DNA of 64,000 nt from the NCBI GenBank assembly GCA_964016885.1, contig OZ024740.1, forward strand, positions 113,336,001-113,400,000, written 5' to 3'. Both the position numbers and the translations under genes were made by a program. Shown here piece by piece: positions 12,241 through 52,436 of this stretch. The stretch comes from Eledone cirrhosa. Taxonomy: Eukaryota. The first letter of the stretch is position 1. Every line of letters starts with the position of its first letter. The notes beneath the pieces are model-generated. The model had not been told where the DNA came from. It did not search any database and saw only the letters and a program-made list of their open reading frames with translations.

Positions 12241-12297
12241 TTTATTATTGTTATTATTATTATTATTATTATTATTATTAGTATTATTATTATTATT
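12241..12297 (+). repeat. (ATT)n microsatellite, 5' target flank of Tx1 copy 2
   Basis: Directly visible; abuts the element start. Confidence 0.93.
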
Positions 12298-15200
12298 GGC
12301 GACCTACGTAGTAAATCGTATCATCGTGAGCTCCGCAAAGGTTTGTTATTTCCGTTTGTTAAAAATTGTCATTTATGGAAAATTTTATTGTTAACTGTTT
12401 ATAAGCGCACATACATTGTTTTCCGAAAGGGACACCCAAAAAGATTGGGGCCTTGTGCCCAAAATTTAAACTTTTATTATTATCAAAAAAATTTCTTTGA
12501 AAAAAATGGATAATTCACCTCTGCACGAAGCAGCTGAAAGCCTTCCTCGCAAATTAACACCTCACACCGACACCACCATTGTAAATGTTACTACGTTTGC
12601 CAACACAAAAAAAAATATAAGCACTAGCAATATTTTAAATTTGTCTCAGGCAGACATTCATTTCCCGCCATTACCAATGACTGCAGGTGTTAAAGCCTCC
12701 ACCACCACCACCACCACCGCGACAACCACCACCACCACCACCACCGCGACAACAGAAACAAAAGAAGAAAATTAAATTAACACGTGATGTCGAAATGAAA
12801 TCAAGCAAAATGGACTCTTCCCCACCAAAGACGACTGACGTCACCACCACCACAACTGAAACTAAAATTAATATTAACGATAGCAACAACAACGACAATG
12901 ACATTATAACCCCCCCCCCCCAGTTTCGCCAAAGTAGCAAAACAGTTCGAAGCATTTACGGTAACTCAGGAGGATTTAGAAAATGCCAAACAAATGGTAA
13001 AGAAAGATGGGTACAGGGTCAGCCTCACCCCCACCTAATAAAATGGAGCATCGGCGCCTATGCACCGTGTCGTATAGAACAATAAATGTAAAATCGCGCC
13101 GAGTGGAACGGGCATCCGAGTCCCAAATCCAAAAAGCTTTGGGACATGTGTGGGCAAGAAAAACCCACATCAGACGTGGGCAAAAGTATGGAACCGTGGA
13201 CGTGTTCTTTGAAACACCAGAGGAGGCTAGAGAACACTCCATGGCCCCATTAAGAAGTGACGACTTCACACTCGTCCCAAGCTATTGTGGCCAGAGACTC
13301 GTAAAGATCAGGGTGACCCACGTTCCACCGGCCATCGAAATTCCCTGGCTAATAGCGGCTGTCCTCGCCGGTATCGAAGCCAACACGAAAATAATAGCAA
13401 TAGCAAAAGAAAAGCAGGAGAACTGGTCCGGATCTGGGATGGAGCTCCTGATCAGAGCGGACCAAAAAAGCATTGAGGAGATCCCAGAGGTAATAGACCT
13501 CACTGACGGCAGCCACCTCACGGTAATTGTCGAGGGCAGAAGACCTAGGTGTGTCGTTTGTGGTGAAGGAACCCACCTAAGGGCTTTCTGCCCTCAGGCT
13601 AAAAGGTTGAGGCCACCTCTCTTACCCACCCAGTGACACAACCATCAACACCACCAGTAGCAGAGATGGCAGCAACAACTGTAGCAGCAACAACAGAAGC
13701 AACTATAACAGCAACAACCCCAGCAACAGTAGCAAAACCAACACCACCACCACCACCAGCAAAACCAACACCACCACCACCCAACGCTTCAGAACTAGCA
13801 CCAGCGCCTACACCATCCACCACGCCACAACCAAAACTAACGGCTGTGGAGGATTTTCTACTCCCCGGCCTATCACAACTGGAGACAGATTGTGACGACG
13901 AGGAGTGGGAAAAGATATCCGGAAAAAAAAAAGAAATCAAAAAAGAAAAAATTCTCTTCCTTCCCCCTCCAAAAACAAAATACAGAGGGAAACAAATAAA
14001 TTAAGAAACAAAAAAGTTAGGACAGATATGCCACCATCCACACCAGCATCACCAACCCCATCAACCCAAACACCAACACCATCACCATCATTAACCCCAA
14101 CACCACCATCACCTACACCACAAAAGTCACCGAAATGCGAAACAGAAACAAACCCACAACAAACGCAAACAAAACAAAACAACCAAAACGATACACACTA
14201 CACAGCATTAAATTTGAACAACAAGCAATTATTACACTACATCCAACACAACACCAGCATCACAGAAAAAGACTACACAACAACCCCAAAATTCACACCA
14301 CCTCCACACATACAAATCACTCGCATCACACAGAAAACGTACATGACACTAAAACAAAAATTCCCCAAAGACATCGGAGACTTCCGACAAGCACTCTCCA
14401 GGAGGATTTATAAAGACATCCTTCCTGAGGAGGCCACAAGCAGTGAAAAGGATGGAAAAACCGTCCTTCCCCTACGAGAAGTAAGGTAAGTGGTATTTCC
14501 CATCTTTTCCACTCCTTTTCAACATGACCTCACTCAGAATAGGTAGCATAAATGCGCGTGGCTTGGGGTCGTCATGGAAGCAGGGCCACCTGCTCAACGA
14601 CCTCAGGTCACTAAACATAGATGTAGTGGCCATCAGCGAGACCAGAATCTCCGAAGCACAGGCTTTCGCACCGATCTTTGGCGGCTACGATGTGTACGTA
14701 TCTCCCAGCCGTCCGGGATCGGGGGGGAGGAGTTGCTGTGCTTTTTCGGAGAGGTTTGGATCTTGCCATACGGGCCATCTTCCTGGACCCAGAAGGTAAG
14801 TTGGCGTGACCAGCGGAGACGGCCAAGCTTTCAGGTTAGTGGCCGTCTATGCCCCGACAGGAGCAGGGCGGCCTGATTTTCTTCCGGCGTCTGGAGACCT
14901 TTCTTGGAACGTCCCGCTCTTTAGTGTTAGTGGGCGACTGGAACGGGATCTTAGATGCACGCTGGGATTGTGTGGGATTAGTGGATAGGGAAGGAGGGTG
15001 CAAGAGTCTCACCAACCTGCTCAGACGTTTTGAACTGTCTGACAGGTACCGAATGGATTTCCCGAATGTACCAATGTGGACTTGGACAAATCGCATAGGG
15101 TCATCCAGATCATATCTAGATAGAGTATTTTGTAGGGAAATAGATAGGTCTAGCATAGCATGTCCACAATTCAAGATAGTCAGCTACACGGACCACAAAT

Positions 15201-50367: not shown

Positions 50368-52357
50368 ATCATAGAGAGGGTGGTTAAGGAACCTGGCAAG
50401 GGTGGGGCCCTGATCAACTTGGATCAATCCAAAGCATTCGATAGGGTCGACCGTCGGTACCTGGCGGCGGTCCTCGAGGCAGCCGGTTTCGGGCCCGTTT
50501 TCAGGCGTTGGATCGCAGCAATGTACAGCGACATCTGCTCAGTTGTGAGGGTGAACGGTCACCTGTCGCAGCCGTTCAGCATCATGCGCTCAGTCCGCCA
50601 GGGTTGTCCCCTCTCGTCCGTCTTATACGTATTGGTTCTTGAGCCGTTACTGCACAAACTGGGGGCGATTAGGGGCGTCCCACGCGAACTAGGATGCGGG
50701 AAATCCGAGTCGGCTTACGCTGTCGACGTCACCGTGGTGGTGTCGAGCACCAGACACGTCCAGATGCTCGGCACCGCTCTCAAGGAATATGAAACGGTGA
50801 CAGGAGCAAAGATAAACCAGGAAATGTCGGTGGGCTTGCAGCTAGGCACCTGGAGAGGCAAGTCCAAGCCGTCCGACAGCGTCGTGGGGCGTTGGACGGA
50901 CGGACCGGTTAAATTGCTCAGGGTCTGGTTCGGACAGGACCTCCTGATGGAGAAAAACTGGAACGAGGTGACGAGCAGGGTGGCCTCCCTCACCCAGAAA
51001 TGGGCTAAGAGGAAGCTGTCCCTGAAAGGCCGGGCGGAAGTGGCGAATGCGTACATCGCATCCGTCATCTGCTACCGCCTCACCGTAGTCCCTTGCTCCA
51101 GCCCAACTCTCACCAAAATGGAGCGCCTCCTCTTCCGCTTTTTGTGTATGGGACACGCTCCCATGTTCAGACGATCCATCTGCTGTCAACACCCGTTGCG
51201 TGGAGGACTGGGCATGCCATGGCTGATGATGCGCAAACATGCGCTGAGGCTGCGACATCTCTGGTGCTTCCTTGATGGTGAACGGGTGTGGTCGCCGTTC
51301 GCCAGGCACATTTTCCCACAGCTCGTCTCCTTGACGGAGCTGCAGTCCTGGGTCAGAAAAAGACCGAGGGATAGTGCTTGGAAACTGGAATGTCTCCAGG
51401 CGCTCACTGCCCTCTCCCAGTTGTGCACCAGTATCGGTGGAACATCCACCTCGGCGTTCTATAGAGGACTAGTGGAGGGGAAGAGCGACGACGTTCTCGG
51501 AGAGATCCTGGGCGTCGAAGAAGATAAGCTGCTTGCTCTCTTTCGGAAAACTTCCAGCCCAGGGCCTATGGATAACTTCCAAAAATACCTGGCCTGGCAG
51601 TGTTACCGGGGAGCGCTCCCGGTTCGAGATAAGCTCTACAGGCACAGAAGTGCCGTCAGCCGAGCCTGTCCGAGATGCGCGCATAGCGACGAAACCGTTG
51701 TGCACGCACTCGTTCAGTGCCCGAGCATTGCTGACTTGTGGAGCTATGTCGAACAGTTGCTGTCACGTGTGGGACTGATCCGGTTGTCGACTGAGTCCAT
51801 TGTGCAGATGGTCTCGCCGTCTTCCTTTGAGGAGGAAGGGCAGGCGGTTTTCATCTGCCTGGTGGCCATGGCGAAAGAGATTGTGTGGTGGACAAGGTTA
51901 AAAGGATTAAAGAGAAACACTTTCCTCTTCGGCGAATCCCGGATTAACTTTTTCAAGTTTCACTTGAAGAGGAAAATCAGGGTGGAGAGGCAAGTGCTGC
52001 TTTCTAGCAAGTTTGTTGAAAGGTGGGTGAATGTAGCGAGAATGGTCCGAGTGAACAGGACCACTCTGAATATATGTCAGTAGTTTGAGAGATGGCGCTT
52101 GCCCTGGTAGTCAGGGTGGCCGTGGTCTTTTGTGTGGTTTTCGCCACGAGTAACCCTCGGAGGTTTCCCTCCTATTGGGGAATTTTTCATTGTTTCAATT
52201 TTTATTTTATTGTTTATATATATATATATGTTTTATGTCTTTTTTCTTTTCTTATATAAACAATAAAAATATTTACACGCACAAAACCCACATCGTACCG
52301 TCCTGTTCCGTCTGTGATGTTTTTCTTGATGTCAGCCCTTGGGCCAATAAAGAAATC
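50368..52357 (+). mobile_element. 5'-truncated Tx1-clade LINE (copy 5), same subfamily as copy 3
   Basis: Open frame from inside RT (DQSKAFDRV, RQGCPLS, mutated YAVD) to 52083; 3' UTR like copy 3; long (ATT)n at 52358-52436. Confidence 0.92.
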
Positions 52358-52436
52358 ATTATTATTATTATTATTATTATTATTATTATTATTATTATTA
52401 TTATTATTATTATTATTATTTTTATTATTATTATTA

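Follow-up and report, generated by a model that had tools for sequence, protein, structure and literature searches.

Among the LINE (long interspersed nuclear element) clades that carry an apurinic/apyrimidinic endonuclease (APE), site-specific families are reported only from Tx1 and R1 (PMC13295347). Several Tx1 families are specific for microsatellites, including Kibi at (TC)n, Koshi at (TTC)n, and crocodilian Tx1 at (TTCC)n or (TTTC)n (PMC4494074, PMC3812793), and the way in which site-specific LINEs pick microsatellites is described as poorly understood (PMC3812793). TAA repeats are the target of Dong, a member of the R4 clade, in silkworm, mosquito, and snail (PMC3812793). We analyzed 64,000 nucleotides of AT-rich, microsatellite-rich eukaryotic DNA from the cephalopod Eledone cirrhosa (contig OZ024740.1, positions 113,336,001 to 113,400,000; referred to here as the window), which contains five related LINE copies, c1 to c5, all on the + strand. 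We consider it quite probable that Tx1-like APE LINEs of cephalopods, comprising at least two long-diverged subfamilies of open reading frame 2 (ORF2), insert preferentially into (ATT/AAT)n with ATT on the sense strand.

The copies c2 to c5 are joined directly to ATT repeats at both ends. Their 5' joints read ATT|GGCGAC in c2, (ATT)26|GGTGAA in c3, (ATT)5|GAATGC in c4, and (ATT)4|ATCATAG in c5, with 5, 26, 5, and 4 upstream units directly adjoining the respective copies. At the 3' end, AATAAAGAAA(T/G)C leads straight into ATT in all four copies (GAAATC in c2, c3, and c5; GAAAGC in c4), followed by 6, 5, 4, and 21 perfect units, the last of these arrays reaching about 26 units if interruptions are allowed. 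At least four ATT units are therefore present on both sides in 4/4 copies, always with ATT on the sense strand, and the three copies with a full span (c2, c3, and c4) all start ATT|G. The end motif followed by three ATT units has four matches in the window and none in 100 shuffles. The original prediction, made from the sequence letters, had described ATT repeats on both sides of c2 to c5, the ATT|G start, and the AATAAAGAAA(T/G)C|ATT end, and all of these match. It had also called three copies full-length, which is correct for their span (5.9 to 6.0 kb) and incorrect for their integrity, as every one is disrupted.

Outside annotated LINEs, 341 of 27,989 positions (1.2%) follow at least four AAT-type units; against that background, insertion at two independent loci has a post hoc probability of approximately 1.5e-4. 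Most can be learned from the 5' junctions of c2 and c3, whose flanks are two separate loci and cannot be tails of Tx1 elements, together with the common ATT|G register of three unalignable 5' ends. Outside elements, (AT)n repeats occupy 1048 bp in 33 arrays, compared to 513 bp in 16 arrays for AAT-type repeats; although (AT)n is twice as abundant, none of its 33 arrays in the window flanks c2 to c5. Conversely, of the 16 AAT-type runs located outside elements in the window, 15 are part of an array in contact with a LINE end. A published criterion for target preference is that >20% of flanks are of one sequence type (PMC4494074); within the window, the flank type is ATT in 4/4 copies, but these represent only two independent arrays. 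The ATT preference that was originally proposed for this lineage is probably real.

The two arrays and the elements around them are arranged as follows (window positions):

1913..1966, + strand: (TATC)n/(TC)n array upstream of c1, from Tandem Repeats Finder and the sequence
1967..7807, + strand: c1, a sister Tx1-like LINE; ORF1 with a CCHC knuckle at 3215; ORF2 at 4113-7566 with one frameshift, encoding APE, reverse transcriptase (RT), and zf-RVT; 3' end AATAAAGAAAT|ATATCTATCC, not ATT; 5' boundary placed where the repeat stops
12242..12297, + strand: left part of ATT array A, free-standing with no element upstream; 5' flank of c2
12298..18174, + strand: c2, ORF2 subfamily A with ORF1 type 1; spans the full length, with stops and frameshifts interrupting it
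18175..18192, + strand: (ATT)6 common to c2 and R1, which stand tail to tail
18193..19952, - strand: R1, a 5'-truncated LINE of the type with a restriction-like endonuclease (RLE), Dong/R4-like; flanked at either end by AAT repeats when read on its own strand
19953..19997, + strand: right end of ATT array A; 5' flank of R1
33750..37358, - strand: D2, from a second RLE-type family; has a 5' end of its own, with (AAT)n(AAG)n ahead of it on that strand
37384..38248, - strand: ATT array, the RLE piece R2 (37443-38152), a short run of ATT, and a duplicated piece of 65 bp (38184-38248)
38249..38328, + strand: (ATT)26, 5' flank of c3 and also of the opposite-strand RLE piece
38329..44302, + strand: c3, ORF2 subfamily B with ORF1 type 2; full span, broken
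44303..44317, + strand: (ATT)5 linking c3 and c4, of a size to be a target-site duplication, or an RNA tail
44318..50355, + strand: c4, ORF2 subfamily A (from 46630 onward, 92% identical to c2) with ORF1 type 3; full span, broken
50356..50367, + strand: (ATT)4 linking c4 and c5
50368..52357, + strand: c5, subfamily B; 5' truncation falls within RT; 571 codons open; joint shows 2 nt of AT microhomology
52358..52436, + strand: ATT array common to c5 and R3, tail to tail
52437..53137, - strand: R3, a 5'-truncated RLE fragment (52437-53062), with its AAT 5' flank (53063-53137), the right end of array B
55041..58667, + strand: third AAT array, with RLE elements only: a 55-bp 3' fragment and D1 (55203-58667, ORF 56357-58489)

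Divergence among the copies provides the strongest argument for a target. From just before ORF2, c2 and c4 are 92% identical, and c3 and c5 are 90 to 94% identical, while the A pair (c2, c4) and the B pair (c3, c5) share 78 to 82% in ORF2; c1 is 71 to 73% identical to c2 to c5. Over 571 codons, synonymous divergence (dS) between A and B is 0.59 to 0.68, with a nonsynonymous-to-synonymous ratio (dN/dS) of 0.21 to 0.23, compared to a dS of 0.10 to 0.12 and a dN/dS of 0.42 to 0.65 within pairs; the two subfamilies thus diverged under selection. The first 400 bp of the 5' untranslated regions (UTRs) of c2, c3, and c4 have at most one 25-bp match in common, and the ORF1 proteins of these copies are approximately 50% identical. 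The 5' parts of c2 (12298-14442) and c4 (44318-46630) have unalignable 5' UTRs, a swap of 5' modules just upstream of ORF2; because their ORF2s are 92% alike and their 5' UTRs and ORF1s are unlike, these copies represent the same ORF2 behind different 5' modules. What was initially regarded as one family is thus two ORF2 subfamilies with three 5' UTR/ORF1 types. Flank and ATT|G register have stayed constant in lineages that diverged while active, which argues for a maintained target.

Two simpler accounts of the junctions were rejected: ATT is not part of the element's 5' end, given three unrelated 5' UTRs and the truncation of c5, and c2/c4 or c3/c5 are not segmental duplications, given that their flanks and 5' parts differ. 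At the other end of the elements, a hairpin of the CCCC-TATT-GGGG type is present in the 3' UTR of all five copies (near 7670, 18020, 44095, 50200, and 52165), and the last ~20 bases are likewise kept in c1 to c5 while the remaining 3' UTR diverges. The kept hairpin and end are a possible RNA recognition signal.

The lineage is abundant in three organisms (34,000, 6,702, and 35,881 contigs; 217,581 reads). Using 4 of 9 runs, we aligned reads to positions 40400-44800 and considered the best 24 of 7,279 loose ends, the best 15 of 1,553 read joints, and the best 12 of 247 between-letter rows. Restriction site-associated DNA (RAD) reads from another individual contain at least two further joints of the 3' end plus ATT to truncated copies, in keeping with the pattern. 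Among the joints listed, 44317->43542 is covered by 123 reads with one start and 44317->43062 by 78 reads, with ATT arrays of approximately 5 and 6 units in the two joints.

Several observations weigh against a target preference. The four copies fill only two independent ATT arrays in the window: the repeat in front of c4 also serves as the 3' repeat of c3, and c5 and c4 share one in the same way. The truncated copy c5 had been taken as proof that upstream ATT belongs to the target; its upstream ATT is the 3' repeat of c4, so a self-made tail combined with a template jump predicts the same joint, and that proof falls. Given landing in some microsatellite, the AAT share is 20%, which raises the probability for two loci to approximately 0.04, also post hoc. 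Pure repeat hides the length of any target-site duplication and makes the exact register unreadable. None of the best 24 of 7,279 loose ends lay at an ATT junction, and both RAD joints, which may be chimeras of the library, are of the tandem type that template jumping would also produce. The load of private substitutions is much the same in c3, c4, and c5 (3.7, 4.1, and 3.4%), so age gives no sign of three separate events, and we rejected differing ages as proof of sequential insertion. Finally, the loop after the WTW motif, which has a role in endonuclease specificity, differs by three small changes between the TATC-flanked c1 and the ATT-flanked c2; being nearly alike in both, it lends no support to an endonuclease basis for the preference.

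One alternative is that ATT is the element's own tail, with no targeting. Template jumps from one RNA with an (AUU)4-5 end to the next would then have produced the c3-c4-c5 chain, and the tails would later have been hit by Dong-like elements. Repeat tails are common in APE LINEs, with TAA, CAA, or TGTAA reported for I, RTE, and L2 elements (PMC3747384, PMC13295347); moreover, the internal arrays are short (5 and 4 units in the window, approximately 5 and 6 in the RAD joints), the three copies are similar in age, and the 2-nt AT microhomology at the c5 joint would also be expected. Under this explanation, however, the repeats that precede c2 and c3 would be there by chance (the probability of 1.5e-4 given above), and two 6-kb RNAs from different subfamilies would have to be copied in a single event; it also does not sit well with unequal disablement over the same 571 codons (8 in c4 compared to 0 in c5, and 3 in c3). 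We regard it as very unlikely. Slightly less so, while still unlikely, is a target consisting of the end of an existing LINE beside its repeat, either the 3' end of a sister Tx1 element or a Dong-like end, as for Tx1L and Tx1-Mar. Transposon-targeting Tx1 families are on record (PMC4494074), each of c2 to c5 adjoins another LINE across ATT on at least one side, and the arrays at the tandem joints are short. The neighbors vary, though, between an RLE 3' end, an RLE 5' junction, and a Tx1 3' end, so that ATT is the sole common part, and no element lies behind the array upstream of c2.

Copies might instead survive in ATT-rich repeat deserts, or have been copied along with them, by passive accumulation or local duplication. 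The window is indeed a LINE pile that includes a 99%-identical 720-bp RLE pair, and Waldo-A/B are a cited case of elements building up passively close to CA repeats (PMC3812793). Against this, the junctions are base-precise and of a single orientation, the copies are 79 to 92% identical with different 5' ends and hence not duplicates, and no use is made of TA and CA arrays, which are more abundant; of the readings considered here, this is the most improbable. A further variant accepts the insertion pattern and assigns its cause differently: the endonuclease would be a fairly generic nicker of T-A steps (AAT|AAT and GAT|AGAT share AT|A), pairing by the 3' repeat of the RNA would mainly pick the microsatellite, sister families would switch target (TATC or ATT) by changing their tails while the endonuclease loop stays nearly the same, and APE and RLE LINEs would compete for and rebuild the same arrays from opposite strands. 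This variant is possible, albeit doubtful.

If (ATT/AAT)n is the preferred target, insertion might proceed as follows. The ORF2 endonuclease would nick the AAT strand at a T-A step, and the 3' end of the RNA (AAUAAAGAAAUC plus a few AUU units) would pair with the freed AAT primer, where reverse transcription would start. A second nick 12 to 15 bp downstream, after ATT, would leave a duplication, which would be visible as (ATT)4-5 in tandem joints wherever a younger insertion hits the border of an array that belongs to an older copy. Cleavage at TpA is reported for the L1 endonuclease (PMC13295347), and sequential tandem insertion around a duplication is reported for SINEU-3 (PMC4494074). The preference itself would have been reached by a switch from another microsatellite, converging on the target of Dong.

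The protein domains place the copies among APE-type elements, as had been proposed. Pfam matches in ORF2 are Exo_endo_phos, RVT_1, and zf-RVT, corresponding to an N-terminal APE, RT, and a C-terminal zinc finger, and the endonuclease aligns with that of L1, with APE motifs present in c1 and in part in c2 to c4. A separate ORF1 with a CCHC zinc knuckle is a feature of the Tx1 clade; the knuckle CX2CX4HX4C is present in ORF1 of c1, c2, and c4 and was not found in ORF1 of c3. The ORF1 of c1 has no Pfam match, and ORF1 look-alikes in the Atlas are CCHC/ZCCHC3-type RNA-binding clusters (0.88-0.92). With c5 as the query, the U2-group protein P0028 (the same tip as the U2-flanked L017) scored 220 bits compared to 75 bits for human L1 ORF2p. 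The APE-type, Tx1-like nature of the copies is supported by these domains, the L1-endonuclease alignment, and the U2-group score, and formal membership in the Tx1 clade is likely from sequence. With an APE and two ORFs, c1 to c5 differ from Dong/R4 elements, which have a single ORF and a C-terminal RLE. The closest proteins with a named source include those of Argonauta hians (62%) and a cuttlefish (36 to 53%), which point to an octopod host. A protein labeled Herbaspirillum sp. from a metagenome-assembled genome (P0201/P0314) is 62% identical to c1 ORF2 and is likely cephalopod DNA in a bacterial bin.

We built a FastTree tree of 163 rows and then an IQ-TREE tree of 49 chosen rows (LG+G4 without mixture); c3 is in neither tree and c4 is in the FastTree tree only. 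The 49-row tree, to which all of the following support values refer, has long branches that caution against reading its deep nodes and contains neither Kibi, Koshi, an L1 outgroup, nor a named Tx1 reference. Support is 100/99 for c2 with c5, 100/100 for the window copies with Argonauta and two further proteins, and 100/100 for that group with the cuttlefish protein and six more proteins. The window clade lies outside the U2-flanked (96/96) and 5S-flanked (100/100) groups, so membership in either was rejected. These two anchors come from Rfam on 20 of 80 metagenome loci, with the label of L053 assigned by eye; the 80 loci were retained out of 457, are all distant (22 to 41% identity), and served only as anchors. 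In none of the 80 is the longest ORF followed by a TC or TTC tail. The ATT flanks of c2 to c5 also set them apart from Kibi and Koshi, which target (TC)n, (TTC)n, and related pyrimidine repeats (only c1 stands in TATC/TC), and from Keno, whose U2-flanked rows form a separate clade.

Among the anchors, the U2-group elements L001:701-817, L004:782-896, and L008:554-716 have an internal U2-like match near the 5' end, and L004 also has flanking U2 halves. The 3' ends of the Tx1-like L037, L059, L061, L067, and L079 show a short A run, then ATCCC(G/A/C).. and GATTTT(T/C), a pattern that suggests a shared downstream target. In prokaryote genomes, a protein scan confirmed 0/42 candidates, and an end-motif scan gave six matches, all to the motif alone and therefore attributable to chance; viral contigs gave none. 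Within the window, a Tx1-like zf-RVT region that is more distantly related (38% to c1) is present as a fragment at 53287-53645, with (AG)49 after it at 53681.

The sister copy c1 is nearly intact, with one frameshift in ORF2, and has TATC/TC repeats on both sides (1913-7830). In its 3' flank, 16/17 bases recur upstream at ~1930-1946, and its family possibly targets (TATC)n. The position of c1 in TATC/TC points to a switch between microsatellites, and with this one copy as the guide (n = 1), the likeliest origin of the ATT preference is a change of target from some other microsatellite, not a new gain of targeting. The original prediction had the ATT target independently acquired. Independence from Dong stands, because the APE and RLE nucleases are unrelated; "acquired" is probably the wrong picture.

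Both ATT arrays are common to Tx1-like copies and RLE-type LINEs. In array A (12242-19997), c2 (+) and R1 (-) stand tail to tail; in array B (37384-53137), RLE pieces (-) are followed by c3, c4, and c5 (+) and then R3 (-), again tail to tail, with D2 starting at the left edge. R1 has RT, CCHC, PD..D..P, and EK..Y motifs, restriction-like ones among them, R2 is 99% identical to the 3' part of R1, and D2 is 90% identical to 55203-58667. We presume these neighbors to be Dong-like, a label given from their motifs and general knowledge without a tree. Read along its own strand, each RLE piece adjoins AAT repeats, which is the reverse of the arrangement in the Tx1-like copies. Convergence of the APE lineage and Dong-like elements on a single repeat, used from opposite strands, is probable.

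A number of other features occur in and near the arrays. At 38088-38270, a 65-bp piece at the R2 5' end is repeated, with ATT units after each copy, and looks like restarted or jumped reverse transcription. A 55-bp RLE 3'-end fragment (55113-55167; see also 52437-52495) lies between two AAT arrays, directly ahead of D1, apparently an extreme 5' truncation with target on both sides. (AAG)12 separates the D2 5' end from its AAT array (37350-37385), and array A is preceded, at a distance of 200 bp, by an (AGA)21 array (11980-12042). A GIY-YIG-type frame at 1-498 (weak in Pfam, below the cutoff) and a similar-looking frame at ~58660-59400, which cuts off D1 at 58667, are probably Penelope-like elements. 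A dispersed repeat of 190 to 400 bp, in several nested copies (10551-10750, 20837-21207, and 23603-24397) and ended by short AAT runs at 10554 and 10742, is probably a short interspersed nuclear element.

L1-Tx1 families are annotated in octopus and other coleoids (PMC13282606, PMC8967140); in Octopus vulgaris, 13 families with 421 recently active insertions are reported, and Dong-R4 and L1-Tx1 are both recently active (PMC13282606). The annotated coleoid families probably include the lineage described here. In the main text of these papers, the word "target" occurs 0 times (PMC13282606) and once, generically (PMC8967140), and Tx1 targets are undiscussed there. An ATT- or TAA-targeting Tx1 is not described in the literature searched, which did not extend to Repbase, Dfam, or the original Kibi/Koshi paper, where a prior record is possible. 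According to a review, the STITCHR screen used models of RT and restriction-like endonuclease (PMC13580325). Overall, the feature is real and probably reflects a true ATT target preference, best read as a new target for microsatellite-targeting Tx1 in cephalopods.

If genome-wide data agree, this result adds an ATT target and a cephalopod branch to the microsatellite-specific Tx1 elements. It would also be a case of convergence in which RLE-type Dong uses the very same arrays from the other strand. It may help to explain the tie of AAT arrays to LINE ends in this DNA. Sister families that are ~72% identical with different repeat targets would be good material for separating endonuclease from RNA-tail effects, and if target choice does depend on the RNA tail, they offer a natural side-by-side test of RNA-guided and nuclease-set targeting. 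Because target switching among repeats is typical of Tx1, specialists may find the case neat rather than startling.

The lineage resembles Kibi, Koshi, and crocodilian Tx1 in being APE-type, Tx1-like, and probably specific for a microsatellite; those families have vertebrate hosts and other repeat units, whereas here the host is a cephalopod and the unit is ATT (TATC in the sister). If the published Kibi and Koshi units are written on the element strand, a T-rich sense strand is common to them and this lineage. Keno (U2 small nuclear RNA) and the 5S-flanked group, which we take to be Mutsu (5S ribosomal DNA), are the nearest target-defined relatives retrieved and have a similar ~1150-aa ORF2 with APE, RT, and zf-RVT; the window clade lies outside both, at ~30% identity and with another target. 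Dong shares the microsatellite itself, and RLE-type elements of its kind occupy both arrays in the window, yet Dong has an RLE, one ORF, and AAT on the sense strand, whereas this lineage has an APE, two ORFs, and ATT.

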